A stretch of 45,653 nt of DNA from a virus, in IMG/VR virus record IMGVR_UViG_3300044498_000033, positions 1-45,653 of that record. One strand, given 5' to 3'. Position 1 is the stretch's first letter; each line of letters starts with the position of its first letter. The position numbers and the translations under genes were made by a program. The notes under the pieces are model-generated. The model saw only the letters and a program-made list of their open reading frames with translations, was not told where the DNA came from and ran no database searches. Positions 4,503 through 38,803 of this stretch are shown piece after piece.

Positions 4503-5944
4503 TACTTCTTCACCCAGGCTGAGCCGTTCCACTTCCACGTCCCAGTCTGATCGGGCGGCGCGGTCTGGATGAGACTCGGCGCCGCCTCCGGGAACCCGCC
4601 CGCGTAGTCGGTCAGGTAGTCCGCGCCGTCGTTCCTGCCCGTGATCTTATTGATCATGCGCGCGTACTCACCGGCAATTTGGTCGTACTGCTTCCGGCTG
4701 GAGGCGTAGCGTTTCAGGATCGTGGCCTTCAGCCCCTCTCGGGCTTCCTGCGTCAAGAACCCGGAGGCGTCGAACACGCGCCGCACGGAGAACCCCACGC
4801 GGGACATGACCGCCTGCGCGTAGTTCTGGACCGTGGCGTACTCAGATTCGCGCACCACGCTATTCGGGTCCATCACCTTCGCGAAGGCGTAGATGAGCGC
4901 CTGATCGTCGGCCGGACTGTTCGTGTTGTTCGGGAGGCTGTTGACGAAGTGAACCTGTTTCGCCAGCTCTTGTGTTTCCTTGACAACGGTCTCTGTGCCG
5001 AAAGCGCGAGACTTCGCCTGCACGGCCGAATCCACGCGCGGCGGGAGTCCGCTTGGCGTCGGCTGCTGCGAAGCCGTCGGTCGATCGTCCGCCTGCCCCC
5101 ACGCCTTGCGGGCGGCGATCTCGTCGGCTGATGTCAAATCCTCAACCGTCTTGCCGATTCCCTTCGCATACCGCGCGAGGAAGTCGCCGTAGTCAGTGCG
5201 GGCCTCCGGCTTGACCGGCTTCGGCACCGGATAGACCGGCGCCCCGCTCGGATCGCTCACGGCTGTGCCAGCCAAGACTTCCAAGTCCTTCAGCGCCGTC
5301 TGCTGCCCGTTGAATGAGACCGTGGCGCCACTCGCCACGAGGCCGTCGTACTGTTCGCCGTGGCGCTCGCGGAGCGCCTTCGTGAGCGCCGCCGCCTCGG
5401 TCTTTTGCTTGGCCGTGTTCGGCGTGACCGGCATCGCCACCCACGCCTCCGGGCTGATGTCGTAGGCTTGCGCCCCGACCTTCTGCGCCATCTGGAGATA
5501 GGCCGCACGCTCCGCTTCGTTCGTGATGCTGGCCGCCTGTTGCATCGTCTCGGTGACGAACTTCGCGGCGTTCTGGGCCGTCGTCTGATCGAACTTCAGC
5601 ACATCCAGCCGGCGCGAGAACGCCGCTGTTTCGTCCTGACGCGCATCATCAGCCGCCGCCTGCATCCGCTGCTGCGCGAGTGCGCGTTCCCGCTGGGTCG
5701 ATTCGGCGTAGCCCATGAGCGCCGCGCCGGCCGCCGCTCGGCCGCCCGTCCGCCCCGCGACCGCGCCCATCACGAACGGCATCACCGCCTTAACGATCTC
5801 CGCCCAATTCGGGCCGTTCGTCGGCTGCGGCATGGCGAAGTCGCCGCCCATCGGCTGCTGGGCCGGAGCGCCAAATGTCGGGGACGGCGCAGCCGCGCCG
5901 AACATGCCGCCGAGATTCGGCGCCTGCGGCGGAACGTAGGCCAT
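4502..5944 (-). CDS. Internal virion-like structural protein (480 aa)
   Basis: Long ORF in the tail/ejection block; Gly/Ala/Pro-rich N-terminus with hydrophobic segment VMPFVMGAVAG; 1-nt stop-start overlaps on both sides. Confidence 0.5.
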   Translation of the reverse strand: MAYVPPQAPNLGGMFGAAAPSPTFGAPAQQPMGGDFAMPQPTNGPNWAEIVKAVMPFVMGAVAGRTGGRAAAGAALMGYAESTQRERALAQQRMQAAADDARQDETAAFSRRLDVLKFDQTTAQNAAKFVTETMQQAASITNEAERAAYLQMAQKVGAQAYDISPEAWVAMPVTPNTAKQKTEAAALTKALRERHGEQYDGLVASGATVSFNGQQTALKDLEVLAGTAVSDPSGAPVYPVPKPVKPEARTDYGDFLARYAKGIGKTVEDLTSADEIAARKAWGQADDRPTASQQPTPSGLPPRVDSAVQAKSRAFGTETVVKETQELAKQVHFVNSLPNNTNSPADDQALIYAFAKVMDPNSVVRESEYATVQNYAQAVMSRVGFSVRRVFDASGFLTQEAREGLKATILKRYASSRKQYDQIAGEYARMINKITGRNDGADYLTDYAGGFPEAAPSLIQTAPPDQTGTWKWNGSAWVKK

Positions 5945-6891
5945 TACGCCTGCCCTCCGCCAAAGAGCCGCGACCAGTCCATGTTCCCCATCGCCGAGCC
6001 GATGCCGCCCCAGAGCGAAGCGTTCCGCTGATCGTTGGCGTAGCCCGACTGCTGCGACTGCCCGATGAGCTGCATGAGTCCGCTCATGAGCGACTGCGGA
6101 TTCGACATCCCGCCGCCCATGTTCAGGAGATTCATCGCCTGCCCGAGCCGCCGATCCTGGAGTTCAATCGGCAGGGTCAACATCTGCAGCATCTGCCCCG
6201 CGCGCTGGTTTTCGAGGTTCGCCATCGCCTGATGAATCTGCGCCGACTGGCCCATCCGCGCGTCGTTGATCTGCTGGGTCTGCGCCGCGATCTGCTGCAT
6301 CATCTGCGTGATGTTGGCCGCCATGCCCCGCTGGCGTTCCGTCTTGGCCGCGCCTTCGATCACGAGATCGCGCTCCGCCCCGGCTCGCGCCTGGTCCGCT
6401 GACGTGTTCACCTTCGACAAGGCGTCGGCAATCGTGCCGGACTTCTGCCCGTGGCCGAGTGAGGCCAGCGTCTGCTTCGCGCGGGTGAGTCCCGTATCGC
6501 GGTTCGATTCGATGCCCGTGAACGCCGCCGCCCGTCGCGCCGCATCTTCGGTCGCCGTGAACGCCGGCTTCTGCGCGTCCTCCAAGAGCTTCCGCAGCGT
6601 CGAGTTGATTTCTTCGCCAAACGGATTCTGCCAGCCGCCCTGAAAGTATCCCGCGATGTGCTCGAGGCCCGTCGGCCCCGCGTTCTGGCGGCTGTTGATG
6701 AAGTCCATCAGATTCGACAGGTACGGGTCGTTGCCGCCGCCGAAGGACTGGCCGCTGCCAAACGACGGCATGCCAATCGGCTGCGTGTACGCCATATCGC
6801 CGCCGCCCGATTGCGCGCCCGTGACGGACGGCATCGACCCGCCCCCAGAGACGGGGTACGGGTCGCCCTGATCCTCGTTCCACCAGGCCAT
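5944..6891 (-). CDS. Gly/Gln/Met-rich virion-associated protein (315 aa)
   Basis: Low-complexity G/Q/M-rich ends with a helical Q-rich core; coupled to its neighbours. Confidence 0.5.
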   Translation of the reverse strand: MAWWNEDQGDPYPVSGGGSMPSVTGAQSGGGDMAYTQPIGMPSFGSGQSFGGGNDPYLSNLMDFINSRQNAGPTGLEHIAGYFQGGWQNPFGEEINSTLRKLLEDAQKPAFTATEDAARRAAAFTGIESNRDTGLTRAKQTLASLGHGQKSGTIADALSKVNTSADQARAGAERDLVIEGAAKTERQRGMAANITQMMQQIAAQTQQINDARMGQSAQIHQAMANLENQRAGQMLQMLTLPIELQDRRLGQAMNLLNMGGGMSNPQSLMSGLMQLIGQSQQSGYANDQRNASLWGGIGSAMGNMDWSRLFGGGQA

Positions 6892-10816: not shown

Positions 10817-10957
10817 TCACGACGCCACCGCCACGGTCGGAGCCGGCGCAATAATCGCCACTTTCGCCGCCCCGCACGTCGGGCACTTCACCGCCGGCTT
10901 GGTCTCTTTCACCGGGAACACATGCCCGCAGCGATAGCGAATCTGGATGAGGCTCAT
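10817..10957 (-). CDS. 46-aa zinc-ribbon mini-protein (not in the ORF track)
   Basis: Manual translation MSLIQIRYRCGHVFPVKETKPAVKCPTCGAAKVAIIAPAPTVAVAS; its ATG overlaps the TGA of 10954..11727 (ATGA); it fills an otherwise empty gap. Confidence 0.5.
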   Translation of the reverse strand: MSLIQIRYRCGHVFPVKETKPAVKCPTCGAAKVAIIAPAPTVAVAS

Positions 10958-11727
10958 ACCGTGTCCTCATAGCCAGAGCCGGCCCCACGACTGACACCGA
11001 CGCGGTTGTAGGGGTGTTCCTTGAACGTGACCTGCCGGCCGCCCACGGGCCGGTTCTTGTCGCGGTAGTCGAGCACCCGCTGTTGGGCCAGCCCCATGAA
11101 GTACTGCGACCGCTCGATGTCCTTCCGGAGCAGTTCGAGCTTCGACGCCGCGTAATGGACGAGCGCGTCATGCCACGGAATCAGAATGGCCAAGGCATCG
11201 CCATCGACCGTGAACGGTTCGTCGGCGTCGGCCACCATCGGTTCCGGCTTGACGGCATAGGGCAAGAGAGCGGTCCAGGTGTCCCCGCCCGAGATATCCG
11301 GGGCCGGAGTCATGCCCCAGAACCGCTCTCCGCCTTCTGTGCGCTCGTACCACTCACACGGTCGGCCATCGGCCGCCGTGCGCCAGCCGGGGCTGTTCGC
11401 GTCCAGCCAGGCGAGAGTGCGGCGCGTGAAGTCTTTCCCCGCGTAGAACGTCGTCGTCGAACCCGAGACGATCTTGACGCGCACGCCCTGCGGCACGAGC
11501 CACAGGAAATCCTCGTCGGCGATCTCCGTCTCCAGGTCGTATTCGTCCGTGCTGTCCACGAGCGTGATCGAGGCCGTGCGCACGAGGCAACTCGTCTGCT
11601 CGGCAAACCACCGCTGCCCGCGATTGATCGCGCTCTTGCGTCGGGCGGTCGTGAAAATCAGGGAGGTATCCGACGAGGACAACGCCTCGGTCAGTTCCTC
11701 CCCGTACAGCTCCAGAAACGTGGCCAC
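10954..11727 (-). CDS. Tail tubular protein A / head-tail adaptor-like protein (257 aa)
   Basis: Position immediately before the 633-aa nozzle-like gene; no specific catalytic motif. Confidence 0.4.
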   Translation of the reverse strand: MATFLELYGEELTEALSSSDTSLIFTTARRKSAINRGQRWFAEQTSCLVRTASITLVDSTDEYDLETEIADEDFLWLVPQGVRVKIVSGSTTTFYAGKDFTRRTLAWLDANSPGWRTAADGRPCEWYERTEGGERFWGMTPAPDISGGDTWTALLPYAVKPEPMVADADEPFTVDGDALAILIPWHDALVHYAASKLELLRKDIERSQYFMGLAQQRVLDYRDKNRPVGGRQVTFKEHPYNRVGVSRGAGSGYEDTV

Positions 11728-11973
11728 TTACTTGCCTTTCTCCCGATCCTTGAACGCCTTAATCTCGTCCTGTACTTGCTTGGCGCGATTGGCGAGATCG
11801 ATCCGTTCCCGATTCGGTTCGTAGTAGTAGACGTAGAGGCTGCGTCCGTACCACACGCCATGCACCAGCCGAGAGGCGTAGAGGCCCCACGCGAGAAGTC
11901 CCACCACGGCCCCGCCCACGATCCACTTCTGCTTCGGCGAAAACGCCGCCCACCACGTCTTGAGTCCTGTCAT
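11728..11973 (-). CDS. Possible independently initiated 81-aa membrane protein nested in frame at the 3' end of 11728..13713
   Basis: ATG 11973 preceded by GAAGGGGGAGCA (strong SD); MTGLKTWW..WIVGGAVVGLLAWGLYA TM then a charged tail. Confidence 0.45.
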   Translation of the reverse strand: MTGLKTWWAAFSPKQKWIVGGAVVGLLAWGLYASRLVHGVWYGRSLYVYYYEPNRERIDLANRAKQVQDEIKAFKDREKGK

Positions 11974-13713
11974 TGCTCCCCCTTCGGAATGAATCTGGCG
12001 GACTTGGCCGCGAGCGCGCGGAAGGGTGCGTTCAAGAAACGACACCGGCGCCGCGCGAGCGCGCGGAAGGGTGCGTTCAAGAAACGACACCGGCGCCGCG
12101 CGAGCGCGCGGAAGGGTGCGTTCAAGAAACGACACCGGCGCCGGAGCGCCAGGCATCGGCAGATTTGTGCGCGGGATGCGAATCAGGAACGCGTCCATAT
12201 AGCCGGTCCAGTGATTGCTGACGAGGTAGTACCAGCGCCCATCGCTGCTGATGTTCGGCTTCGGCCCCTTGTAGTAAAAGTTTTCCGCCTCGTTGCCGCC
12301 AGTGCCGTCTGCTGTCACGTCGGTCATTTGCGGCGCCACGACCAGCACGGTCGGATCGCCCGGCCGGAAGCAGACCAGCTCACGCTCGCGCGGGATCGGG
12401 GTGCCGGGTGCCGACTCGCTCTGAATGTTCGTGTGGCACATCTGCTGATTGGCAATGGCCGTTGTCCCAGCCGGAACCGCTGTGTTCCATGACGGCTGAC
12501 CAAAGCCGTTCGCGATGCTCATGGTGTAGCTGAAGATTTGATCACCACCACCAGCGACGTCCGAGAGATCCCAGAGCTTCAGGACTTCAAACCCCGCCGC
12601 ATCGTTGTCCGAGAACACCGCGAACCCGTGCCCGTAGGCGAGATGCCCCGGCGCACCTGACGGATGAGAGCCGCCCTGGAAGTCGCAGATGAAGTGCTCG
12701 GTTCCCGGCGTGTCGAGCCGGAAGATGTAGTAGTCGATGCCGGAAGAAGCCGGGCAGCCGGATAACGCTTCGGCTCCGTTGCCGCCATAAGTGCCACTCA
12801 AATCCATGTGCGGGTCGCCGCCGAACGGCTTGGCGATCCAGGTGTCGGCCGCCGTCATCCAGATATTCGCGACATCAGCCCCAGAGAGGTCTTTGACGGT
12901 CGCGGAAAACTTGGTCCCGGTGGCATCCGTGTGCGGCGACCAGATCTTGACGTCGTTGAGGTAGTCCGCCGCAGCCCCGCCGGCCACGCCTGCGATCGCT
13001 GTGCGGGCCGCGAGGGAATTGACGCTGCCCACGATCACGCAGTCGATGCCGTCTGTTGACGAGATCGGCAACGACGCGGTGCCCGCCCCGGTGTTGCAGC
13101 GAAGGAACTCCCACAAGTGGCCTTCTCCGCCCTTCACGTAGATCGTGTGCGGTTCGCTCGGGTTCAGGCTGGTCTGCCAGCTATCACTCGCGCTGTTCAC
13201 GTCCTCAAGCGGGTCGCCGTTCTCGAACATTTTGACCCACGGGCTGACTGTTCGCGTGGAGACGGTGACGTAGCCTTTGTGAACACCGAGATTGCCGAAG
13301 CTGTTCCAATACTCGACGACATCGTGCCCGTCACCGGACGGCGCCCCCTGGTTGAAGATGTTCATCCAGTTGTCGGAATACCCCGTCTGTCGGATGCAGC
13401 CCGTCGCCGCAAGCCCTGAGTTGTGGCAGTCCTGCCCGACCGCATCGGCGCCGAGCGTCAACCGAAAGGCGTCGGTGTTGTACGGCGCCGGAAACCTGAA
13501 CGCGGCCCGCGTGACCGGCAGATACGTGGACGGGTTGGTCTCGTCTTGGTCGCGCACGTCGGTGTCGGTGTATTCCTCGGTAAAGCCGCCCTGCGTGTCG
13601 CTGAACGCGAACTCACCGCCGCCGACCCCAGGCTTGCAGCACTTCTGATCTGACGGCATCCACGCGAGCGACACCGCGACGGCTATCGTGATCAGCACTG
13701 CCTTATCGCGCAC
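11728..13713 (-). CDS. Signal-peptide-bearing beta-propeller-like protein (661-aa ORF as written, including a 3x15-aa repeat and a TM tail)
   Basis: N-terminus MRDKAVLITIAVAVSLAW; repeated G/D/W-rich beta-type segments (SDGRWYYLVSNHW); open frame runs through the tandem repeat. Confidence 0.6.
   Translation of the reverse strand: MRDKAVLITIAVAVSLAWMPSDQKCCKPGVGGGEFAFSDTQGGFTEEYTDTDVRDQDETNPSTYLPVTRAAFRFPAPYNTDAFRLTLGADAVGQDCHNSGLAATGCIRQTGYSDNWMNIFNQGAPSGDGHDVVEYWNSFGNLGVHKGYVTVSTRTVSPWVKMFENGDPLEDVNSASDSWQTSLNPSEPHTIYVKGGEGHLWEFLRCNTGAGTASLPISSTDGIDCVIVGSVNSLAARTAIAGVAGGAAADYLNDVKIWSPHTDATGTKFSATVKDLSGADVANIWMTAADTWIAKPFGGDPHMDLSGTYGGNGAEALSGCPASSGIDYYIFRLDTPGTEHFICDFQGGSHPSGAPGHLAYGHGFAVFSDNDAAGFEVLKLWDLSDVAGGGDQIFSYTMSIANGFGQPSWNTAVPAGTTAIANQQMCHTNIQSESAPGTPIPRERELVCFRPGDPTVLVVAPQMTDVTADGTGGNEAENFYYKGPKPNISSDGRWYYLVSNHWTGYMDAFLIRIPRTNLPMPGAPAPVSFLERTLPRARAAPVSFLERTLPRARAAPVSFLERTLPRARGQVRQIHSEGGAMTGLKTWWAAFSPKQKWIVGGAVVGLLAWGLYASRLVHGVWYGRSLYVYYYEPNRERIDLANRAKQVQDEIKAFKDREKGK
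12009..12143. repeat. Perfect tandem repeat, 3 x 45 bp
   Basis: The unit cgagcgcgcggaagggtgcgttcaagaaacgacaccggcgccgcg is repeated at 12011, 12056 and 12101 without mismatch; it encodes APVSFLERTLPRARA x3 on the minus strand. Confidence 0.95.
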
Positions 13714-14524
13714 GCCGCACCAGTTGCACGAGCCGCGGCCCGAACGGATGCTGCGTCATCGAGAGGAGGAGCGGCAGGCCACCGCCGCCACGCGGACGCA
13801 CGGTGGCCGGGAGCGGAGACGGCGCCGCGCCGCCAGCGGCCTCATTCAACGCCACGACCGCGCTCAGCGTCACCGCGCTCGCCATCGTCCAATTAAGCGT
13901 GTGGCTTCCGGCCCCTGTCGCCCGCTTGTCCTGCACGTTCACCAAAAACCCGGCGGCTGATGTGGCTTCCCATCGCTCCGTCGGGGAGCCGGCGCCGCCG
14001 ATGGTCGGATCTTGGTTCGTGACCAGTGCCCCGTAAATCAGCGCGGCTCCGCTGGTGTCCACCGCGGGCGTGGTCGTGGTCGTGACGCCTGATTCTGTTT
14101 CCGTGTCCGAGTCGGCGACACAGGACGAATCGGCAAGGCCGCTGTACTCGTCCACGCGGATGATGTCGCCCACAGCCCCGCCGGTGCCGTGCGTCACCGT
14201 CACGGCCGTTGACCCGCCCACGGAGTTGCACACAAACGCCACGCACAGCCGGGCCGTCGTCGCGAGGTTCAGATTGACCGTGGATTCAAACGTGTCCGAC
14301 TGATTACTGGTCGGCGTGCCGCACCCGACGCCAACAGCCGAGTCGCCCGTGACGACCCACACCGTGCCGAACGAGTTCCCAGCCGTGACTGTGATGGCGC
14401 TCGACACCCACGGATCGGGGTCGTTCGTGACGGACGTGGATGTTTCGAGGTAGGCGTAGTCGGCCAGCAGCACGACCGTCGCCGCGAAGATCGCGACGAG
14501 CGCGAGGCTGGCCCTTCGGCGCAT
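13703..14524 (-). CDS. Signal-peptide-bearing beta-sandwich (lectin/LamG-like?) protein, 273 aa
   Basis: Start reassigned to ATG 14522-14524 (TAATG overlap with the upstream stop); MRRRASLALVAIFAATVVLLA; Thr/Gly/Val-rich beta-type sequence. Confidence 0.6.
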   Translation of the reverse strand: MRRRASLALVAIFAATVVLLADYAYLETSTSVTNDPDPWVSSAITVTAGNSFGTVWVVTGDSAVGVGCGTPTSNQSDTFESTVNLNLATTARLCVAFVCNSVGGSTAVTVTHGTGGAVGDIIRVDEYSGLADSSCVADSDTETESGVTTTTTPAVDTSGAALIYGALVTNQDPTIGGAGSPTERWEATSAAGFLVNVQDKRATGAGSHTLNWTMASAVTLSAVVALNEAAGGAAPSPLPATVRPRGGGGLPLLLSMTQHPFGPRLVQLVRRAR

Positions 14525-16395
14525 TACTGCGCTCTCCGATAGATGAACGTGATCGCCCCGAGCTGCACGTCCGCGTCGAGGGTGTCGCCCGAGGTCGTGC
14601 GATTCCGGTTCACCCGGAAATACATCTGTTCGCCGGCCGCGCATCCGGTCGTATCGAGCGTCGTGACGGCGGTGTCGTTGAGCTGCAGCGTGGTCCCCAG
14701 GTTCGCGTCGGCCGCGAACACCGTCTCGGCCCAGACCACATCGGTGAGGGCTTGACCCGCCGCGACACAGCCAATGTTGACGCGCCACACGACGTTATTG
14801 GTCGTCGTGCTGATCGCGCGCCAGTGGATCTGCGCGGCGAAGGTGCCGGTAAAGCCGGTCGGGACGCGGCCCCAATACTGATGCCACTCGGTTTCAATGT
14901 CGCTGTCGCCCTCGAACGTCGCAAACCCCGTCGCGATATCGACACCGACCGCCGTGGATTCACAGACCGCAACAGGAGGTACCGTCGTCGCCGTGTTCCC
15001 GCCGAGGGTCGCCGTCGTGTTCTGGCAGACCGCCACCGGGAACGACACCTCATGTGTAGTCGTAATGACGTTGCCGGTCCCTTCCACGTCCAGCGTCTTG
15101 TTGGTGAGGGTCGCCGTGCCGTTCGGGGTCGTGATGCCGTCCGAGGCGTTCGTGTTCGTCGCCAGCGCCGTGAACACGCCCGTGCCTTCGCCTGTCACCG
15201 CAGTTCCCAGGTTGCCGATGGACGGCGTGACGAGCCAGGTCGCCACTCCAGCATCCGGCGTCACGAAGGTTTCGAGGATGTCCCGGATCGCGTCCATGCA
15301 CGGCACGGCCTCCGAACCGTTCCAGCCCGTCGCGTCGTAGGCCGTGCAGGGGACTTCCAGGTTGATCGCGCCGAAGTCGATGATGCCCACGCTCGTGGAG
15401 GACGACACCCCCACTTCGTTCGATGTGTCGTCGAAGTTGAAGATCAGGTTTTCGTCTGATCCTGTGCTGTTGCCGGTGATGATGAGGGCGCCGTCGCCGT
15501 CGTCGTCGATGAACACGCCCGCTGAGCCAAGCTGAATCCTGACGCCGGCCGCGAGCTGCGACACCTGAAAGTCGGTCGTCGGCGTGCCGTCTTTATCCCC
15601 GACAAACTGCGCATAGATGACGTTCACGTCCGCGCCGTCGTTATGCGACAGCTTCAACAGGATCGTGTTATTGGCCGCGTCCGCGTCCGTATCGCTGATT
15701 TCAATGACCGCCGCCGCCGCATCGAGCGTGGAGAGCCAGATGTGCGTGGTGTTCGTCAGCGCCACCGAGCCATTGCCGGACGGGTCGGCCAGATCGTCAA
15801 ACTCCGTCGTCCCGCCGGTGTCGTTGTCGTTCTCGCAGAGCCACGTATCGGTGTCGTCGTCAAACTTGACTGTCTGGTTGTCCGTGCAGGTATCCGAGTC
15901 CAGAATCGCAATGAACTTGACGATGGCCGCGCCGTCGAACCCAATAAAAGCACCCGTCGTGCCCCAGCGGTTCGTATCGAGCGCAATCTCACCGGCCGCG
16001 TTGACCGTGGGCGCTGCGGCCTGCGGAATCGCGATCGACCCCGTAAACACCGGATCGACCGAGAACACGAGCGCCCCGGCCGTGCCGGTCTCGTCGTCCA
16101 TGATGGCCGCGAGTTCCGCCGACGCGTCGAAGTCGTCGGTAGACGCCGAGCCGCAACCCAGCCCCGTACACGTGCCGTCCTCGGCCACCGTGAACACGGC
16201 CACGCCATCCGAGCCCTGCAGCTCGAAGATCGGGCCAGTCGAGGTCTGCTTGATCGTGACGGCGGCCCGTGTGCCCGTCGTGGACGTGGCGAGCGACTGC
16301 CCGCCGCTCTGCAGCACCCACGTCCCGTTCTGCGCGACAACAACCGTGGCTGAGGCGATAAAGAGGCCGAGCAGGAACGCCTTGACTCGTGCCAT
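14524..16395 (-). CDS. Signal-peptide-bearing large Thr/Asp/Gly-rich protein, 623 aa (fibre- or adhesin-like)
   Basis: Start reassigned to ATG 16393-16395, 2 nt after the upstream stop; MARVKAFLLGLFIASATVVVAQ; acidic DxD-rich and T/G-rich beta-type repeats. Confidence 0.6.
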   Translation of the reverse strand: MARVKAFLLGLFIASATVVVAQNGTWVLQSGGQSLATSTTGTRAAVTIKQTSTGPIFELQGSDGVAVFTVAEDGTCTGLGCGSASTDDFDASAELAAIMDDETGTAGALVFSVDPVFTGSIAIPQAAAPTVNAAGEIALDTNRWGTTGAFIGFDGAAIVKFIAILDSDTCTDNQTVKFDDDTDTWLCENDNDTGGTTEFDDLADPSGNGSVALTNTTHIWLSTLDAAAAVIEISDTDADAANNTILLKLSHNDGADVNVIYAQFVGDKDGTPTTDFQVSQLAAGVRIQLGSAGVFIDDDGDGALIITGNSTGSDENLIFNFDDTSNEVGVSSSTSVGIIDFGAINLEVPCTAYDATGWNGSEAVPCMDAIRDILETFVTPDAGVATWLVTPSIGNLGTAVTGEGTGVFTALATNTNASDGITTPNGTATLTNKTLDVEGTGNVITTTHEVSFPVAVCQNTTATLGGNTATTVPPVAVCESTAVGVDIATGFATFEGDSDIETEWHQYWGRVPTGFTGTFAAQIHWRAISTTTNNVVWRVNIGCVAAGQALTDVVWAETVFAADANLGTTLQLNDTAVTTLDTTGCAAGEQMYFRVNRNRTTSGDTLDADVQLGAITFIYRRAQ

Positions 16396-16397
16396 CG

Positions 16398-16724
16398 CTA
16401 CACCGCCACAATCACGACCGTGACCGTCGGCGAGGCGCCGCCGGAGATCGTCGTGGTGATACGCGCCCGGACCGCCAAGACCCCGCCAGCCGCTTGCGCG
16501 AGTGTCGCGCAGCCGCCATTGACGAAGCTCAGCGTGCCAATCGGCGCCCACGTGCCGGCGTAGCTGGTCGAGGGCGCTTCCTCAATCGTGACGACGCCGG
16601 CCGAGACATCCGCCGCAAACGTGGCGTAGGCCCGAAGCGACCGCATCACGCCGCCCAGATCCACCGCCGTCCCGGTGCCCGTGGCGACCGCGTTCAGCTG
16701 CAGGCTTTTTGTTTCGAGTGTCAT
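16398..16724 (-). CDS. Small beta-rich hypothetical protein (108 aa)
   Basis: Start reassigned to ATG 16722-16724, an ATGA overlap with the glycosyltransferase stop. Confidence 0.55.
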   Translation of the reverse strand: MTLETKSLQLNAVATGTGTAVDLGGVMRSLRAYATFAADVSAGVVTIEEAPSTSYAGTWAPIGTLSFVNGGCATLAQAAGGVLAVRARITTTISGGASPTVTVVIVAV

Positions 16725-17407
16725 ACCGTCGCCGGCTCCTTGACCGGTTGGCGCATCTGTTCGGCGTCGGCAAGCGACACCATCCGGTAGGCATCGACCC
16801 GCCCGGCTTCCGGCGTGATCGCGCACGTCATGATGTGGGGCAGCGGCAGATCGAGATCGACCAGCACCTCAAACCCAGCCGCCCGCGCATTCACGCAAAA
16901 CGACAAGTCCTCGGCCACGTCGCGTGGGTCGAACTGCCCCGCCCGGCACCAGGGCCGATCCATCGCGGTCCAGACGTCGCGGCGGATGAGCATGCAGCCC
17001 ATCCCGACGCCGTCCACCTTCACGAGCCCGTCGTTGACGTCAAACAATCCCTGCGCGGACGGCGCCGAGATCGGCCGCCACTTCCGCTGTTCGATGTGGA
17101 GAAACGCCGTCGAGTAGTGCGGAGGGCGTCTGGTGTAGTAGTGGGCCGAGACGATGGGCCGGTTTCGCGCCAGGAGCCGCGTCAGCACATCCTTCGGCAA
17201 AATATGATCGTCATCGACCGTCAAGAGCGCATCGGCGCCCGACTGGTCGGCCAGATCGAACAGGTTGTTCCGCTGCGTGACGATGTACGTCCCTTCGCAC
17301 GCCAGCCTGACAATGGTCACGTCAGCAGGACGCTCTAACGCATAGAGTTGCTGCCAGAACTTCGCGTAGCCTTGCGCCCGATGCGGAATCCCAATCGCGA
17401 TAATCAC
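16721..17407 (-). CDS. GT-A fold, family-2-like glycosyltransferase
   Basis: LLTVDDDHILP (DxD), VDGVGMGCMLIRRDVW, AEDLSFC; no TM segment. Confidence 0.65.
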   Translation of the reverse strand: MIIAIGIPHRAQGYAKFWQQLYALERPADVTIVRLACEGTYIVTQRNNLFDLADQSGADALLTVDDDHILPKDVLTRLLARNRPIVSAHYYTRRPPHYSTAFLHIEQRKWRPISAPSAQGLFDVNDGLVKVDGVGMGCMLIRRDVWTAMDRPWCRAGQFDPRDVAEDLSFCVNARAAGFEVLVDLDLPLPHIMTCAITPEAGRVDAYRMVSLADAEQMRQPVKEPATV

Positions 17408-17973
17408 GAGGCCCCCCTGAATCGTGCGACCCCAACCCCTCGGGGCGTCTCAAATAGCGTCCACGGCGTGATCACGCCGTCATCGACCAGCTTCTGCATG
17501 TCGTGGATGAGTTGCGCATGGCCCGGATACCCGCACGGCGTCGTGTCATGGAGCACCACCACCGCCTTGTTACTCGCCCACGTGGCGAAGTACCGGATCT
17601 CCGGCCCGCGCAACACGAACTCGGAATCGGCGAACACGAGATCCACCGGCCCATCTGGCACATACGTGAGCGAGGACGCCGCCCAGACCGTCATCGGGAG
17701 GCCATTGGCCCGCGCCTGCACGCTGTCTGCTCGCGCCGGCACCGGCTCACACGTCACAAGCCGCCCGCGGCCTTCCGCCTTCAGCGCCTCAGCGATGGCC
17801 ACGGCCGTATCGCCCAGGTAACTGCCGGTCTCAATCACCAGATCCGGTTTCACCATCGCGACGAGCGCGGCGATCCAACTCGTGACCGCTGTTTCCGTCG
17901 CGTAGTCGTCGCGAGCGGCCCATCGCTCGGGTTCCGGACAGGCCGGCCGGCGATGGACCGTCTCGCGACGCAT
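17404..17973 (-). CDS. Class I SAM-dependent methyltransferase (O-methyltransferase / Methyltransf_24-like)
   Basis: DLVIETGSYLGDTAVAIAEAL (motif I), RLVTCE, VDLVFADS. Confidence 0.65.
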   Translation of the reverse strand: MRRETVHRRPACPEPERWAARDDYATETAVTSWIAALVAMVKPDLVIETGSYLGDTAVAIAEALKAEGRGRLVTCEPVPARADSVQARANGLPMTVWAASSLTYVPDGPVDLVFADSEFVLRGPEIRYFATWASNKAVVVLHDTTPCGYPGHAQLIHDMQKLVDDGVITPWTLFETPRGVGVARFRGAS

Positions 17974-17982
17974 CTGTGTGGT

Positions 17983-18399
17983 CTAGCTCTCGGCTCCGAC
18001 GTACCGGACGTAGCCGTAGATGTGAACCGTGATGTCGTCGGGCGCCGTGGTGGACCCGGTCGTCGCGTCAATCGTCAGGTTCGACCCTGCCGCCACGCGC
18101 TTACCGGAAAACTCACCCGCATCCGCCGCCACCGCCGTGCTCACGCTGTCATCGGCCACGAGCGTGATCGCCGCCGCCAGAATCGAGGTGCCGTCGTCCT
18201 CGATGTCGAGCGTCGCCGCCACCGCGCCCGCCACGTCGCAGTAGGTGCGCACGTGCGTGATGTACCAGTCCTCGTCGGCCGGCACGTCCAGCTCGAAGAT
18301 TTCGAGATCCGTCTGGCTCGTGGCGACCGTGTCCTTGTGGACGCTGACCAAGAGGCCCTGCGCCCCGTAGACCGGACCGCTATGGGAGGTCTTTGCCAT
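17983..18399 (-). CDS. Capsid-proximal hypothetical protein (138 aa)
   Basis: ORF directly downstream of the major capsid gene; acidic, beta-rich. Confidence 0.6.
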   Translation of the reverse strand: MAKTSHSGPVYGAQGLLVSVHKDTVATSQTDLEIFELDVPADEDWYITHVRTYCDVAGAVAATLDIEDDGTSILAAAITLVADDSVSTAVAADAGEFSGKRVAAGSNLTIDATTGSTTAPDDITVHIYGYVRYVGAES

Positions 18400-18408
18400 G
18401 TCTCCCCC

Positions 18409-19326
18409 TTAGGCTCCGGGCGAACCGACCACACCCTGGTACTGGATCGCGCCCCACGACTGCCGGAAGCCGGCCGAGTACAGCCGGTTCTTCGAGCGGT
18501 CCACCGTGACCGGCGCATCCATCGCAACCGCCTTGCGGACAATCGTCAGGAGGCCGTGCATCTGGTTCTTCGCCACGATGCGCCACGAGTCGGTGTCGGC
18601 GATGTACGGGTTCACCACCACGTCGATCTGGTAGTTCGCCTTGATCGCGTTGATGTCGTTGTCGGCCGAGCCGTTGATGTTCGTGCTCTTGACGATGCGG
18701 GTCGCCAGGAACTCCAGCGCGGGCGGGACTTCGAGGAACCAGCCCGAGGGCGGCTCCATAAAGAAGCCTTCGGCCGACTTGCCGTCCGTTCGGGCTAAGG
18801 TCAGCGCCGTTTCCAGCGCCGTGCGGGACAGGTCCGCCGAGACCAGATTCGACGCCGTGCCGCCGGTCAGGACCACATGCGAGGCCGAGTAGATCGGCTG
18901 GCCGTCGGGGGTCGTTTCCACGCCGCCCGAGAAGCCCTGGCCAATCAGCCGCGCCGCGTACGTCTCCTGCGCCACCCGCAAGGCCATCCGCAGACCCCGC
19001 GCGTAGTTCTTGATCACGCTGAACTCGTCGTCATCGGCCGCCTCTTCCGTTACCTCGAAGCCCAGACGCCACTTGAGGTGGGTCAGATCCTTCGGGGAGC
19101 CCGGCGTGAGGTTCTGGGTTGTGAGGTCGTCACCTTCCGAGAGCGGGCTGGGTGACGTAAACGCCGCGTAGTCCTGGTATCGCTCGAACTTGCGCGTGGA
19201 CGTCTCGGTCCGGAAATACTTCTTCCAGATCGGCGGGATGTCCTTGAGGGTCTCTTCTGCGACCGAGAATACGACCTTATCTACGTTGTCGTATAAACCC
19301 GGAAAAGTGCCGCGTGCTTGGGCCAT
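18409..19326 (-). CDS. Major capsid protein (HK97-fold type)
   Basis: 305 aa, downstream of the scaffold; pattern RKFERYQ..LGFEVTEEAADDDEF..NPYI typical of phage major head proteins. Confidence 0.7.
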   Translation of the reverse strand: MAQARGTFPGLYDNVDKVVFSVAEETLKDIPPIWKKYFRTETSTRKFERYQDYAAFTSPSPLSEGDDLTTQNLTPGSPKDLTHLKWRLGFEVTEEAADDDEFSVIKNYARGLRMALRVAQETYAARLIGQGFSGGVETTPDGQPIYSASHVVLTGGTASNLVSADLSRTALETALTLARTDGKSAEGFFMEPPSGWFLEVPPALEFLATRIVKSTNINGSADNDINAIKANYQIDVVVNPYIADTDSWRIVAKNQMHGLLTIVRKAVAMDAPVTVDRSKNRLYSAGFRQSWGAIQYQGVVGSPGA

Positions 19327-20592: not shown

Positions 20593-21492
20593 TCAGTCCT
20601 CCAACTTCAGGCCGCCGCGGGCCTTGCCGCTGTTGATTTGATCGAGAGACGCCGCAGCGCGCTGCCAGGTCTCGGTGGAGATCCCCACGTTCCGCGCAAT
20701 CGCTGTCTCGCGGTCGGTGAGCGGCGTCTTGCCGGGCCGCGCGCCAGGTGTCTCAGTGAATACCGGCGTCGGCGGCGTCGGCGTGATGGTGTGCTGCGGC
20801 GTCGGCTGACGCCCCTGCAGCTTCGCCGCCCGCTGCTGCAGGTCCATGAACCCGATCGCGGCAATGAGCGCCGTGGGAGCCGTCTCGGGGTTCGTGAACG
20901 TGTCCGGGCTCTTGGTGAGGATGTCATCCAGCACCGGGCCGATCTCGTCGCCGTAGCCCAGCGCTTTGGCCGCCTGAAAGGCTTCGTCGCGCTTGGCCTT
21001 GGCGGCAATCGTCGTCGCCTGCTGCTGCACCGGCTTGACCGCTTTCTCAACCACGGTATCGGCAATCTTCTGCGCCGTCGCAATCATGCGGCCGTGATAA
21101 CGCCGCGCGGCGTCGAGATTCGGCTGGCCCTGCGCGTCGTACAGGGCGAGTTCCAGCGCAATCTCGCGCGCATCGGTGTCGGAAATCTTCGGCCCCTTCT
21201 CGGGGGCAGGTTCGTTGGACAAGAGCTGCGCCAAGAGGTCAGGCCGTGACCGGAGCGCCTCACCCACGGGCGCAAACGCATCCGTGGCTTGCCTGAGCGA
21301 TGAAATCTCCCGCTCCAGGTTCTGCCGGCGCCCGCGTTCCTCTTGCAAAGCCGACAGCGGCACAGTTTTATTCTCCGGCTCCGTCTGAGGTGTCCCAGGA
21401 TCAGGCGGGTCAGACGAAGCCGGAGCCGGCTCGGGCGGGGCGGCGGGCACAATCGTTTCGGGGGATTCTGACGGGGCAACTTCAGGCGGCAT
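20593..21492 (-). CDS. Scaffolding protein
   Basis: ATG 21492 preceded by GAGGA; Pro/Glu-rich N-terminus, helical Ala/Gln/Lys-rich body, about 300 aa, between portal and capsid. Confidence 0.55.
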   Translation of the reverse strand: MPPEVAPSESPETIVPAAPPEPAPASSDPPDPGTPQTEPENKTVPLSALQEERGRRQNLEREISSLRQATDAFAPVGEALRSRPDLLAQLLSNEPAPEKGPKISDTDAREIALELALYDAQGQPNLDAARRYHGRMIATAQKIADTVVEKAVKPVQQQATTIAAKAKRDEAFQAAKALGYGDEIGPVLDDILTKSPDTFTNPETAPTALIAAIGFMDLQQRAAKLQGRQPTPQHTITPTPPTPVFTETPGARPGKTPLTDRETAIARNVGISTETWQRAAASLDQINSGKARGGLKLED

Positions 21493-21796
21493 GGTCCTCA
21501 CTCACGACGCCGATGATGGCGTCAAACGGCAGGGACCAGAGCAGTTCCCCCTGCCAGTCAAACTCGTGGTACACCGCGCCCGGCTGAAAGGCGACATGCT
21601 GGCCAATCGCCAACTCGCCCTCCACTTGCGACCGGCATTCGCGGCAGAGCGTCTTGCCAAGCGCCACAATCACGCCCGAGGTCGGCTTCTCGGTCTCGCG
21701 GAAGTCGGTGTCCGGGATGATGATGGCCGAGGGTTCCGGCTCGGGGATGGCATCGGGGCGGATGAACACGCGGGGGCCGATGGGGCGGAGCGTCAT
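21482..21796 (-). CDS. GroES/Cpn10-like co-chaperonin
   Basis: MTLRPIGPRVFIRP..SAIIIPDT..EKPTSGVIVALGKT..IGQHVAF..DAIIGVV aligns by eye with GroES MNIRPLHDRVIVK..GGIVLTGS..GEVLAVGNG..VGDIVIF..SDILAIV. Confidence 0.7.
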   Translation of the reverse strand: MTLRPIGPRVFIRPDAIPEPEPSAIIIPDTDFRETEKPTSGVIVALGKTLCRECRSQVEGELAIGQHVAFQPGAVYHEFDWQGELLWSLPFDAIIGVVSEDHAA

Positions 21797-33028: not shown

Positions 33029-33904
33029 CTACGTCCCGGTCTCGAGGCGGACCGGATCGTCCGCCGGTAACTCAAACGTCATGCGCGCTTGTTGCAGCCG
33101 CGACACGATAAGCTCGCAGAACCGCTCCTCGCGCTCAACGCCGACGACGGGCACGCCCGCGTTCTTGCAGGCCAGCAGTGTCGTCCCGCTGCCCGCGAAC
33201 GGATCGAGCACCGGACCTTTCCCCGCCCACCACTTCACGAGGCCCGCGACGTGCTGGTACGAACGCGCCGCCGGATGCTCGTGCTGTTTGATGTCTCGCG
33301 GTGCCGTGCAAGTGATCCGTCCCGGCACGACTTGCCCCGGCGAATCCTTCCGGGCCGGGAATGCGCCAAAGGCGTACGCTGCGTCGTTCAACATCGACCG
33401 CCCGCGATAACTCGGCATCGCGTACTCAAGCTGCTGGCTCATCAGGTACGGCCACTCCTTCGGCACGTTCACCAGCCAGCGCGGATCAGACGTGGACGAC
33501 AAATGAACGATCAGCCTGCTTGCGCGGCCGAGCACGAGCTGCGACAACGAGCGAATCAGCGCCTCGTGCTCGTCCCAGCCCGGCACCGTCTCCGGCGCAT
33601 TCGGCCACACGGGATCAGTAATCACCGCCTCCCACGACCCGCCGATGATCGACACCACGTCGCGACTGTCCCCGTGGTACAGCGTCACGTGCGAATCTTG
33701 GTAGTACGGCTCCACGTCAGCCTTTCTCGCATCGGTCTTGTGCAGGCGGCCATCCGCCCGCCGGACCACGCCAGCCAACCGCTGCTTGATCGCCAACCGG
33801 CACGCATCGCAGCACGCCACATCAGCAGGTAGTCCGTTGATGGGCTTCGCCTGCACCGTCGCCGAGGACGCGCCGCAGAGACAGCATTCACTCATGGGGC
33901 ACAA
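33029..33904 (-). CDS. DNA methyltransferase (beta-class N6A/N4C type) with N-terminal Cys cluster
   Basis: Motif I VLDPFAGSGTT near the C-terminus, HPAARS, and a motif IV-like ITDPVWP near the N-terminal third. Confidence 0.8.
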   Translation of the reverse strand: MCPMSECCLCGASSATVQAKPINGLPADVACCDACRLAIKQRLAGVVRRADGRLHKTDARKADVEPYYQDSHVTLYHGDSRDVVSIIGGSWEAVITDPVWPNAPETVPGWDEHEALIRSLSQLVLGRASRLIVHLSSTSDPRWLVNVPKEWPYLMSQQLEYAMPSYRGRSMLNDAAYAFGAFPARKDSPGQVVPGRITCTAPRDIKQHEHPAARSYQHVAGLVKWWAGKGPVLDPFAGSGTTLLACKNAGVPVVGVEREERFCELIVSRLQQARMTFELPADDPVRLETGT

Positions 33905-36222: not shown

Positions 36223-37023
36223 CTATCCAGCCGATCGGATCGCTGCGTTCACCTCGTCGGCGCGGCCTTCTTGCGTTCGTCGTACCAGCCGCGGCCGTGT
36301 CGCAACAGGCATCAGCCCGTCACCGTCACCGGACCCAGGTATAGGGGAATCCTTGAAGCTCTCCCTAGGCGTCTGCGCGCCAGCGGTGCGCCAGTCCGTG
36401 TAATCCCATCCGGCTTTGCCGTGGTTACAGACCTCGCACAAGACCTGAAGATTCGCCTCTACGAGCGCGAGTTCAGGAAAACGCCGTCGCGGCTTAATGT
36501 GATCAACGTGAATCGTGATGCCGTCCTTCGGACTGGCCCCGCAGCACTCGCACCGATTGCCGCGCTTCACCAGCACGACCATCCGGAGCTGCCGCCATTG
36601 GAAACTTCTCAGGAAAGCGTCCGTCGTTGGATCGGGTGCCTCGGACTTATTGGAATTGAATCGGTGCGGCCGGCCCTGGCGCTTCTGCTTCTTGCCGCGC
36701 TGGCGATCGACGGTACGCCGCCACTCGCGGCGGTTCTTCGGGTCGCTCTCGAAGAACGCGCGGAACACGAGGTACGCCGCGTCTCGGTCCCTCGGCTCAG
36801 GCATCCCAACCGCCTCGGCAACAATCGCCCCGAGCTGCAGCAACGGCAGATGGCCTCCGCCGAACTCGTGGCAGGCGTAGCGGTAGTAATGGCCTCGCTT
36901 GCGTGGTTTACCGTCTCTCACCGCTGTCTCCGCTCCATTCAGTTGCCCCGATTGGCCGACCGCTCGGGGCCACACGGTTTCCGTCCTGCACAACCCCGCG
37001 CACCCCTGCACGGGGAAGATCAA
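36223..37023 (-). CDS. HNH endonuclease (McrA-like)
   Basis: CECCGASPKDGITIHVDHIKPRRRFPELALVEANLQVLCEVCNHGK; start uncertain. Confidence 0.85.
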   Translation of the reverse strand: MIFPVQGCAGLCRTETVWPRAVGQSGQLNGAETAVRDGKPRKRGHYYRYACHEFGGGHLPLLQLGAIVAEAVGMPEPRDRDAAYLVFRAFFESDPKNRREWRRTVDRQRGKKQKRQGRPHRFNSNKSEAPDPTTDAFLRSFQWRQLRMVVLVKRGNRCECCGASPKDGITIHVDHIKPRRRFPELALVEANLQVLCEVCNHGKAGWDYTDWRTAGAQTPRESFKDSPIPGSGDGDGLMPVATRPRLVRRTQEGRADEVNAAIRSAG

Positions 37024-37351: not shown

Positions 37352-37821
37352 GCCGGCACCGCCTCACGCGCCTGCCGCTTGCGCTCTTTCTCTTTGAGTT
37401 CTTTGTATTCGTTCGGCGCGATGAGCACGACCCCGCACTCGGCCCCGATGTCTAGCGTCCGCTCGATGAGTTCGCGGTACTGCGCACGGTTCAGCTTCGA
37501 CGTGTGCGGTTCACGGAGCACCATCGTGACTTCCCCGGTGATCGGATTGGTGTGCTCCTGCTCGCCGAAGATCGCGCGGAGCAGATCCCGCTTCAGGTCG
37601 TCAATCCGGTGGCCTTCATCGCGCGCCCAGGGCGCGATCATGGAATGGAATCCGCATTCTTGGGATCGCGTTTTCGCGTGGCCTTGCGGCGCCACGATCA
37701 CGTCGATGCACTGTCCGGCCAGTTTCCGCCTACAGTAGGCTCGCTGCTGTTCAGGGAAGTCCAACCTGATACGGCCTTCGCCATCGACGCGCCCGACGAA
37801 CACCGCTTGATCTCGGCTCAT
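37348..37821 (-). CDS. NinB/Orf-like recombination mediator (tentative)
   Basis: Start at ATG 37819-37821 (ATGA); RSQECGFHSMIAPWA..LKRDLL..EPHTSKLNRAQYRELIERTLDIGAECGVVL resembles the NinB layout. Confidence 0.4.
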   Translation of the reverse strand: MSRDQAVFVGRVDGEGRIRLDFPEQQRAYCRRKLAGQCIDVIVAPQGHAKTRSQECGFHSMIAPWARDEGHRIDDLKRDLLRAIFGEQEHTNPITGEVTMVLREPHTSKLNRAQYRELIERTLDIGAECGVVLIAPNEYKELKEKERKRQAREAVPA

Positions 37822-38354
37822 TGCGCGGCCTTTCTGGCTTGCCACCATGCGAAATAGACAGCCTTACAAGCGCGGCAGAGCGTCTGGTTTCCCCTGTTGA
37901 AGGCAGAAAAGGGCTTCACTGTGTTGCACTTTCGGCAGACCGACTCGGTATTTGGGTTTCCGCCGGCACGCAGAACGCGCGCGCGTGTGTGCAGTAGGTG
38001 GTGGTACTTCTGGTCCTGACAAATCACTAGGTTGATGTTCGCGTTGTTGCGGCGATTCTCGTCAAGGTGATGCACTTGAGCGCCAGCAGGCAGAGGCTTC
38101 CCGAGAGCCCGCCCCGCGATCAGGATGTGCTCGAGCACTGAACCGTGCTTACTGCCTTGCACACGCTGGCGCCGGTAAACCGTGGCCTCGCGAGTGATGC
38201 GACGGTTATGGCCAGGGACAAACCTGAACGGCTGGCCCTTGACGTAGCCCATCCGTTTCCAATTGCGCGGGCTGATCGCTGTCTTGTGACCGCAACCGCA
38301 CTGACACAAGCCCGCGTCAATGGTCGCCGGAAAGACCGCTTGATCCTGGCTCAT
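37818..38354 (-). CDS. HNH endonuclease (HNH_3-like)
   Basis: CQCGCGHKT..FVPGHNRR..QVHHLDENRRNNANINLVICQDQKYHHLLH; start at ATG 38352-38354. Confidence 0.8.
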   Translation of the reverse strand: MSQDQAVFPATIDAGLCQCGCGHKTAISPRNWKRMGYVKGQPFRFVPGHNRRITREATVYRRQRVQGSKHGSVLEHILIAGRALGKPLPAGAQVHHLDENRRNNANINLVICQDQKYHHLLHTRARVLRAGGNPNTESVCRKCNTVKPFSAFNRGNQTLCRACKAVYFAWWQARKAAQ

Positions 38355-38803
38355 CAGAATCCGGCGTCGTCGCCGCCCACGTCGCCCCATCCATCGGCTG
38401 AGCCGTTCGCCTGTGGCTTGAATGTCCCAGACCTGAGCCTCGCCGCCCAGCCTCGCGCTCTCGCCGCGTCCTGGCGCTTGTAGGGCGCCACAGGCTTACC
38501 GGCGGTGGTTGTCTCGCCCGACTTCTCCGCCTTGTCCGCGAAGTAGTCGAACGTCTCGGCCAGCATGTCGAGGAAGTCCACCGGGCACTGCGAGAACTTC
38601 AGGCCCTTGCACTCCTGGCCGTGCCAGTCGCGCGGGTGGAACTTCACAACCGGATCGCCATACTTGCCATCCAGATCACGGTCCGGTGCGGGGGCGGACG
38701 ATGAGGCCGCCGCTCCCCCGCCACGCTTTTGGCGCGCGATCAACACCAGCTCCTTGAGCGAATTGTCAATCGACCGGAGCACTTGGAGCACTTCGACGGA
38801 CAT
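38354..38803 (-). CDS. Hypothetical protein with acidic C-terminal ...GGDDAGF tip
   Basis: DRDLDGKYGDPVVKFHPRDWHGQECKGLKFSQCPVDFLDMLAE; sits next to the recombinase gene. Confidence 0.6.
   Translation of the reverse strand: MSVEVLQVLRSIDNSLKELVLIARQKRGGGAAASSSAPAPDRDLDGKYGDPVVKFHPRDWHGQECKGLKFSQCPVDFLDMLAETFDYFADKAEKSGETTTAGKPVAPYKRQDAARARGWAARLRSGTFKPQANGSADGWGDVGGDDAGF

Follow-up and report, generated by a model that had tools for sequence, protein, structure and literature searches.

What might a methyltransferase (MT) gene and a glycosyltransferase (GT) gene accomplish directly after the capsid and capsid-proximal genes of a phage? The question is raised by the viral record IMGVR_UViG_3300044498_000033 (IMG/VR), a complete JGI metagenome contig, which was analyzed here over its whole length of 45,653 bp (~65% G+C) and is referred to below as the window. 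The answer that we favor, with a probability of roughly 55%, is that the two genes form a cassette that glycosylates a virion protein, or another late protein, in the cytoplasm, leaving it with an O-methylated sugar. By analogy, the arrangement is probably a new example of the sugar coating found on the virions of mycobacteriophages; to our knowledge, only a few phages of that group have been shown to glycosylate their virions with enzymes that they themselves encode.

A sequence-only reading had pointed to both genes and to their position, and in these respects it was accurate: both lie on the minus strand at the coordinates listed here, contain all of the motifs quoted for them, and follow a capsid gene, located two genes upstream of the MT gene, and a capsid-proximal gene.

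18409..19326, minus strand: major capsid protein, 305 amino acids (aa) (Pfam Phage_capsid_4, 3.8e-15; phrog_371, "major head protein," 2e-9)
17983..18399, minus strand: p138, a small conserved protein
17404..17973, minus strand: MT, a class I S-adenosylmethionine (SAM)-dependent, O-methyltransferase-like protein, 189 aa
16721..17407, minus strand: GT, a soluble GT-A glycosyltransferase, 228 aa, with a GTG start

The two enzymes of the cassette

The MT, which contains VIETGSYLGDTA and DLVFADS, had been called a class I methyltransferase, and this assignment held, both in its match to Pfam Methyltransf_24 (PF13578; 36.1 bits against a curated cut-off of 26.3, E = 1.3e-8) and in the COMT-like fold of its AlphaFold2 (AF2) model (predicted local distance difference test [pLDDT] score, 94.2). 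The best Foldseek matches to this model were Rv0187, TomG, COMTs, SafC, and TrmR, with template modeling (TM) scores of ~0.75 and, for Rv0187, TomG, and COMT, E values of 1e-11 to 1e-9, while a family profile built from 17 homologs retrieved O-methyltransferase family 3 structures (3e-6 to 1e-3), as well as COMT, from the PDB. As modeled, then, the fold is that of a class I, catechol/CCoA-OMT-like cation-dependent O-methyltransferase. Invariant residues of the family include E48-T49-G50, D116, H142-D143, and T176-P177-R178-G179-V180; the first three of these belong to SAM-binding motif I (V46-I47-E48-T49-G50), and E76 is nearly invariant. In a HMMER alignment, the invariant D116, H142, and D143 stand opposite the "DAD" and following "D" of Rv0187, positions that we take to be metal ligands there, which makes a noncanonical Asp/His/Asp metal site plausible in the MT.

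Set beside the known cation-dependent class I O-methyltransferases (COMT/CCoAOMT family 3; Rv0187 and TomG; Methyltransf_24/YrrM), the MT thus has in common with them the fold, SAM-binding motif I, and an acidic metal-site position after beta-4. It differs from them in that the Asp/Asp/Asn metal triad of the known enzymes is replaced by the invariant Asp116/His142/Asp143, in being ~30 residues shorter, and in its proposed substrate, since the known enzymes act on catechols or on tRNA 5-hydroxyuridine (ho5U) rather than on protein-linked sugars; it is this tRNA base that TrmR, one of the fold neighbors, methylates. No homologs of the MT were found among GenBank phages, and neither a DNA-methylase motif nor a DNA-methylase family match was detected on it. 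A function as a DNA methylase was rejected in view of the COMT-like fold, the small size of the protein, and the presence of a separate N6/N4 methylase gene in the window.

For the GT, which contains DDDH, VDGVGMGCMLIRRDV, and EDLSFC, the earlier assignment to the GT-A glycosyltransferases was likewise upheld by the DxD motif, by a match to phrog_12406 ("glycosyltransferase," 1.2e-14), and by a confident GT-A fold in the AF2 model (pLDDT, 94.1), its score against Pfam Glyco_tranf_2_3 (PF13641; 25.4 bits, E = 1.6e-5) falling just below the cut-off of 27. The family is large, with 5,892 cluster representatives at an E value of ≤1e-3, and its Pfam matches, taken over 49 members, are divided among PF13641 (22), Anp1 (GT62; 20), and PF00535 (14). 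At least two loci in metagenome-assembled genomes were also retrieved in a scan of cellular genomes for GT relatives. Within a 12-sequence alignment (A3), D65-D66-D67, D167, and H191 are invariant and E166 is nearly so; in a broader alignment of 49 sequences (A2), only D67, D167, and H191 remain invariant. Foldseek listed ColGalT1, Sulfolobus turreted icosahedral virus (STIV) A197, B4GALNT1, mimivirus R699, Mnn9, LH3, and ppGalNAc-Ts as the best structural matches, with SpsA also found, and the family profile matched STIV A197 best among PDB entries (2.3e-9), followed by Mnn9, ColGalT1, and GlfT2. The nearest solved relatives span GT2 (GlfT2), GT62 (Mnn9), GT25 (ColGalT1), and the viral A197, and the nearest structures include both protein-glycosylating enzymes (ColGalT1, LH3, and ppGalNAc-Ts) and viral glycosyltransferases (STIV A197 and mimivirus R699). 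The GT is therefore, as modeled, a small GT-A enzyme of the DxD type, and it is soluble, hydrophobicity peaking at only 1.47 over windows of 15 residues. Because neither the MT nor the GT has a hydrophobic segment, both enzymes are probably cytoplasmic.

The archaeal-virus enzyme A197 (PDB 2C0N), which is also one of the top five fold matches, resembles the GT in being a small, single-domain viral GT-A protein with DxD and ED..F motifs. Moreover, the capsid protein of STIV is reportedly glycosylated. The two enzymes are only ~16% identical, however, STIV infects archaea and builds its virion on a different plan, and what A197 acts on is itself unproven.

On this basis, we propose that the GT, using its DxD motif and probably a metal ion, would move a sugar from a host nucleotide-sugar to a hydroxyl group of a phage late protein, the likeliest acceptor being a protein of the virion surface (the capsid protein, p138, or another product of the same operon). 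The MT would then methylate a hydroxyl group of the transferred sugar, so that virions, or a protein associated with them, would end up bearing a small methylated glycan, much like the glycan coats of Che8, Corndog, and Myrna. Donor, acceptor, order of the steps, and biological benefit are those that we infer, whereas the folds, the active-site motifs, the packing of the operon, and the recurrence beside capsid genes were observed.

Operon layout and recurrence beside capsid genes

Every gene of the structural block, which extends from 11 to 26 kb, is located on the minus strand. Apart from the four genes given above, its main features, in the direction of transcription, are the following.

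26326-24839, minus strand: large terminase
24749-22722, minus strand: SU10-type portal (Pfam SU10_portal, 4.3e-22)
Between the Cpn10 (GroES-like) gene and the major capsid gene, minus strand: a scaffold-sized protein, then a 175-aa and a 184-aa protein
16398..16724, minus strand: p108, a small Ser/Thr-rich protein
14524..16395, minus strand: p623, a Thr/Ser/Asp/Gly-rich protein, island cargo
13703..14524, minus strand: p273, with an N-terminal hydrophobic segment, island cargo
11728..13713, minus strand: p661, with an N-terminal hydrophobic segment, the last island gene before the adaptor gene
10954..11727, minus strand: SU10-type head-to-tail adaptor, the downstream edge of the variable island (Pfam SU10_adaptor, 4.8e-14)

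From the capsid gene to p623, successive genes are separated by +9, +9, −4 (GTGA), −4 (ATGA), and +2 nucleotides. The ATGA overlaps described in the sequence-only reading are thus found at one junction, where the stop codon of the GT gene meets the start of the p108 gene; the MT/GT overlap reads GTGA, and the capsid/p138 and p138/MT junctions are 9-nucleotide gaps. No promoter-like site was seen in the capsid-to-p623 stretch and no terminator-like site in its intergenic regions, the sole match being located inside the GT coding sequence; the terminator-like scan returned fewer sites than were found in shuffled sequence. Because of the tight gaps and the lack of promoter-like or intergenic terminator-like sites, we infer that the block is a single late transcription unit. 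The same earlier reading had described a 6.2-kb insert relative to a T7-like capsid-to-tail layout. While the length is borne out by the 6.25 kb between p138 and the adaptor gene (17982 to 11728), the point of reference is not, the portal and adaptor being of the SU10 type rather than the T7 type.

The relatives with the same capsid type show how variable this interval is. In L092, the proteins of which are 75 to 88% identical to those of the window, the order capsid, p138, MT, GT is retained, and the MT and GT genes are translationally coupled there too. In L090/L091 (capsid 57% identical), the order is capsid, p138, GT, a 114-aa protein, a 222-aa protein, and the adaptor; an MT gene is lacking, and the p138-to-adaptor island of L091 measures only ~1.7 kb. 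L009 (capsid 43% identical) also lacks the MT gene and has capsid, p138, GT, a protein with a p623-type signal-like N terminus, and the adaptor. Finally, L088 and L089 contain capsid and p138 homologs without GT or MT, eight unrelated small open reading frames (ORFs) occupying their place in L088. Adaptor homologs close the island in L009, L091, and L088. Because L088 and L089 lack both enzymes and L091 and L009 lack the MT, the p138-to-adaptor interval is, judging from gene content, a hypervariable island with the GT and MT as optional cargo.

Beyond these relatives, the association of the GT family with capsid genes was followed through 75 IMG/VR loci containing GT homologs. A window-type capsid gene was present 141 to 1,794 bp upstream of the GT homolog, on the same strand, in one-third of them (25/75), although these loci are mutually related and hence do not count as independent observations. 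In another 24 loci, the nearest large upstream ORFs matched PHROGs annotated as "major head protein," nine different families whose member counts total 15, with some ORFs possibly counted twice; four further upstream ORFs of this set were nucleotide-sugar epimerases (L039, L040, L053, and L064) and two were other glycosyltransferases. When upstream ORFs from three IMG/VR loci were searched with tblastn, no match was obtained for two of them, and the third matched records that carry no annotation; because none of the three was confirmed in this way, the capsid call for loci of other than the window type is one of aggregated PHROG counts and is not assignable to single loci.

Several individual loci illustrate the recurrence. 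The P22-type coat gene of L093 precedes, in this order, a 200-aa gene, a member of the GT family (2.8e-52), an 82-aa gene, and a member of the MT family (8e-74). L006 has an HK97-type capsid gene and, after it, a Stealth-like gene, a member of the MT family, and then a head-tail connector gene, and podophage MW202711 has the order capsid, 100-aa protein, GT, tail tubular protein A. In L054 and similar IMG/VR loci, the GT family is found together with an FkbM-type O-methyltransferase and a DUF6492 protein. These other types of O-methyltransferase and the nucleotide-sugar epimerases found beside the GT family point to sugar chemistry. More tentatively, the A197-like GT family, often joined by one of several unrelated O-methyltransferases, may constitute a mobile capsid-glycosylation cassette that entered many unrelated lineages of tailed phages immediately after their major capsid genes, which may include SU10-like, P22-like, T7-like, and HK97-like phages from aquatic and soil environments.

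Some of the sampled loci have features of their own. One recurrent, unannotated phage architecture, shared by L043, L045, L054 to L056, L062, L068, L082, and L085 to L087, consists of proteins of ~756 aa, 86 aa, and ~422 aa, the GT, the FkbM-type methyltransferase, the DUF6492 protein, and proteins of ~236 aa and ~403 aa; the ~756-aa and ~422-aa proteins gave no Pfam or PHROG match, and the latter also had no match among GenBank phages. Two copies of the GT family lie close together on the same strand in L008 (6231-8023) and L010 (4664-7633). In L004 (7052-10537), a member of the MT family belongs to a larger sugar island after the head genes, which also contains a GT1-type enzyme, a weak GT2 match, and an RMNT_CmcI-type methyltransferase and which, from its gene content, suggests more elaborate methylated glycans.

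Known phage glycosylation systems and rival explanations

The closest functional parallels are found among phages of actinobacteria. As described in two papers, the mycobacteriophages Che8, Corndog, and Myrna add glycans to subunits of their capsids and tail tubes with glycosyltransferases of their own (PMC12363180 and PMC12619734), with the virion glycans being attached at C termini (PMC12619734). Corndog has the gene order portal, MT and three GTs (gp35 to gp38), and capsid, and the three GTs of Che8 (gp108 to gp110) are encoded at the end of its genome. In the cluster J phage Dove, a member of the GT family (gp12) directly follows the capsid gene, in a block (cluster J gp12 to gp17) that also encodes an MT and four more GTs. 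For the virion glycosylation of mycobacteriophages, both papers cite Freeman et al. (2023) as their source. What the window shares with Corndog and Dove is a soluble, phage-encoded GT accompanied by an MT inside or beside the head genes. It differs from the Che8/Corndog-type systems in having a single GT instead of three to six, in the SU10-type podovirus portal and adaptor of its phage (Che8, Corndog, and Myrna are actinobacterial siphoviruses or myoviruses), and in being known from its genes, whereas glycans have been reported on the virion subunits of Che8 and Corndog. Dove gp12, for its part, belongs to the same family as the window GT (tblastn, 32% identity over 80% of the query, 6e-11; profile, 7e-27), although the MT encoded in the cluster J block is no homolog of the window MT and the block is richer in content, with four additional GTs plus kinase-like and UDP-glucose dehydrogenase-like genes. 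We know of no experimental demonstration of glycosylation by the cluster J gp12-type GT family.

A number of observations weigh against virion glycosylation by the cassette. When the window GT was compared with Che8 gp110 and Corndog gp38, hhalign probabilities were only 32% and 10%, respectively, and hmmsearch and BLAST gave only marginal matches; the window MT showed no homology to Corndog gp35 or Dove gp14. With no detectable homology, membership in a validated family is not claimed, and the proposed likeness is one of position and enzyme class; the actinophage analogy drawn in the sequence-only reading is supported by gene position (Corndog and cluster J) and by the recurrence of the GT family beside capsid genes. 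Alignments of the capsid protein and of p138 from GT-containing and GT-lacking relatives revealed no GT-linked feature, whether a Ser/Thr-rich extension of the C terminus or a Ser/Thr patch, and L088 and L089, as noted above, manage with the same two structural genes but neither enzyme. One MT homolog (L003) is located outside any structural module and has no GT adjoining it. The position of the cassette could, moreover, reflect a permissive insertion site, and the positional argument on its own is weakened because the GT is optional cargo in a hypervariable island.

The last of these points leads to the strongest rival, which we consider possible but on balance doubtful, namely, that the cassette is accessory cargo of the insertion-tolerant and strongly late-expressed island and that its target is not the capsid. 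The enzymes would then glycosylate the Ser/Thr-rich proteins encoded in the same island before their export, as happens with bacterial adhesins, or would modify a host envelope glycan, with receptor masking or a surface change as the result. In keeping with this, the island varies between the 6.25 kb of the window, the ~1.7 kb of L091, and the eight GT-free small ORFs of L088; p623, p273, and p661 have N-terminal hydrophobic segments, with Ser plus Thr contents of 20 to 22% in the first two and 14% in p661; the L009 island pairs the GT with a protein sharing the signal-like N terminus of p623; and the category assigned to the GT family in PHROGs is "moron, auxiliary metabolic gene and host takeover." However, L091 encodes the GT and yet has no island protein with a signal-like N terminus, members of the GT family lie after capsid genes in numerous lineages with unrelated capsids that do not share the island, and the GT has no membrane segment and no flippase or Gtr-like partner, nor was an integrase found. 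The lack of an integrase, of a Gtr-like family, and of membrane partners in the window, in combination with the late-operon position of the soluble GT, led us to reject a seroconversion (Gtr O-antigen) module, in agreement with the sequence-only reading.

That reading had also named the outcome that would speak against it, an assignment of the two enzymes to DNA- or nucleotide-modifying families by profile searches. Such searches mostly left it intact, yielding no DNA methyltransferase match and no homology to DNA GT-A enzymes, with the caveat that TrmR is a fold neighbor of the MT. The corresponding alternative, in which a hydroxymethylated base of phage DNA would be the acceptor of the GT and the MT would serve in the same pathway of nucleic acid modification, appears very improbable. 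Phage GT-A enzymes that hypermodify 5-hydroxymethylcytosine in DNA have an R...DDD...ED(Y/F) active-site pattern, and their pathways usually form gene clusters that include ThyS-like or C5-MT/TET enzymes (Pyle et al., bioRxiv 10.1101/2023.12.21.572611); in the Microbacterium phage Hamlet, the GT (gp48) adjoins ThyS and MazG genes in the replication module. Like those enzymes, the window GT has a GT-A fold and the pattern in question (R46, D65-D67, and E166-D167..F170), and the fold family of the MT does include TrmR. The pattern is, however, generic to GT2-like GT-A enzymes, and the window GT is encoded among late structural genes rather than replication genes and has different structural neighbors, with TarP absent from its top 50 fold matches. 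Nor is there a source of a hydroxylated base in the window, because Pfam scans of essentially all minus-strand ORFs gave no match to a ThyS-like hydroxymethylase, a TET/JBP enzyme, or a C5 cytosine methylase, and the only DNA methylase encoded in the window is of the N6/N4 type (33029-33904). A comparison with Hamlet gp48 gave an hhalign probability of 12%. Furthermore, the NCBI phages retrieved with the GT-A model of Pyle et al. (Microbacterium phages, T2-like phages, and uncultured phages) belong to other groups, judged by genus and host, than those retrieved by tblastn with the window GT, and the table in question contains no Mycobacterium phage. The lack of ThyS, TET, and C5-MT genes, the different module, the lack of homology to Hamlet gp48, and the different structural neighbors together led us to discard DNA hypermodification as the leading explanation.

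It is also unlikely, though less so, that the pair has an auxiliary metabolic role, acting on a small molecule or on the nucleotide-sugar pool, or that the MT methylates a protein residue independently of the GT. The nearest solved structures of the MT are indeed catechol-type small-molecule O-methyltransferases (Rv0187, TomG, COMT, and SafC), the L003 homolog stands apart from both structural genes and GT, and L091 and L009 encode the GT but no MT. Against this, the two genes are translationally coupled in both the window and L092, the two families occur together again after the P22-type coat gene of L093, other phages pair the GT family with O-methyltransferases of different families, and no other biosynthetic genes were found in the window.

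Should the enzymes prove to decorate virions, virion glycosylation would extend to podoviruses and to hosts outside the actinobacteria, and a sequence marker for glycosylated phages in metagenomes would become available. Should the mobile-cassette proposal hold as well, virion glycosylation would be widespread among environmental phages, far outside the actinophages, and methyl-capped sugars would be a recurring feature of it. The virion glycans of mycobacteriophages shield the particles from antibodies, and decoration of this kind matters for the stability and adsorption of phages, for immune recognition in therapy, and for virion engineering. Taken by itself, the window mainly provides a sound functional annotation and a set of acceptor candidates; the more interesting lead is that a different and very large GT family (~5,900 cluster representatives) recurs by capsid genes of many types, often with an O-methyltransferase.

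Candidate acceptors, island proteins, and other genes of the window

The capsid protein, p138, p108, and p623 are candidate acceptors. p138 has no match in Pfam or PHROG, and no homologs of p138 or p623 were found among GenBank phages. Homologs of p138 with 35 to 88% identity do, however, directly follow the capsid gene in L092, L090/L091 (L091, 1246-1662), L009 (4131-4562), L088 (10001-10426), and L089 (1829-2242), whether the GT is present or absent. The protein contains 20% Ser plus Thr, and its family (~140 aa) has as invariant residues P40 and E43-D44-W45 (within PxxEDW) and G115 and T117 (within a conserved TTGxTTAP patch). p138 may well serve as a head accessory or decoration protein, its family being an undescribed one. 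The p108 gene is translationally coupled to the GT gene by the ATGA overlap; its longer ORF weakly matches phrog_9522 ("major tail protein," 8.6e-4), and a weak match to p108 was also found after the GT in L009.

The N terminus of p623, MARVKAFLLGLFIASATVVVAQNG, is signal peptide-like, with the most hydrophobic window at residues 6 to 20, and the protein as a whole contains 20% Ser plus Thr. Its N-terminal MARVKAFLLGLFIASATVVVAQNGTWVLQ is conserved in the protein that follows the GT in L009 (MRGPKLFLLGLALVLATVTLAAQQGTWVFQ; about 5690-6589); beyond this, no family or phage match was found for p623 in Pfam, PHROG, or GenBank phages. The likely start of p273, MRRRASLALVAIFAATVVLLA, overlaps the p623 stop codon as TAATG, and this protein has no significant family match, with one marginal PHROG match (E = 0.0087). 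p661 has no family or phage match. In each of the three proteins, the most hydrophobic 15-residue window is located at residues 5 to 21; the export of p623, p273, and p661, named in the sequence-only reading, is a prediction from these N-terminal hydrophobic segments. Signal peptide-like or membrane anchor-like N termini in three consecutive large proteins are unusual for a head-to-tail block.

The p661 gene contains a perfect tandem repeat of 3 × 45 bp (12009-12143, minus strand; 100% identity; Tandem Repeats Finder score, 270), which is translated in frame as three copies of APVSFLERTLPRARA and is followed by a C-terminal tail in which a hydrophobic helix (GGAVVGLLAWGLY) occurs along with a coiled segment rich in charge. 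Terminator-like matches, comprising a hairpin plus a T run, were found at 12130-12152, within and just past the repeat. The repeat could have arisen by recent duplication or as an artifact of assembly, or it could be a regulatory element through which the ORF reads.

Among the 48 ORFs scanned as a batch, one encodes a GroES-like cochaperonin (Pfam Cpn10, 1.9e-8). From size and sequence, our guess is that its gene is most likely the 104-aa ORF at 21482-21796 in the head-assembly block, and Cpn10 genes are also located near portal or capsid genes in the relatives L088 (3787-4098) and L089 (2457-2762). The batch scan further identified a Lar restriction-alleviation protein and an endonuclease VII in the window, neither of which was assigned a position. 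No DNA polymerase domain was recognized in the scans of the window; a 484-aa protein has 5'-3' exonuclease domains only. The early region, finally, contains three HNH endonuclease genes (36223-37023, 37818-38390, and 41884-42378), the N6/N4 DNA methylase gene (33029-33904) mentioned above, and a tRNA-Ser(CGA) gene (45298-45366).

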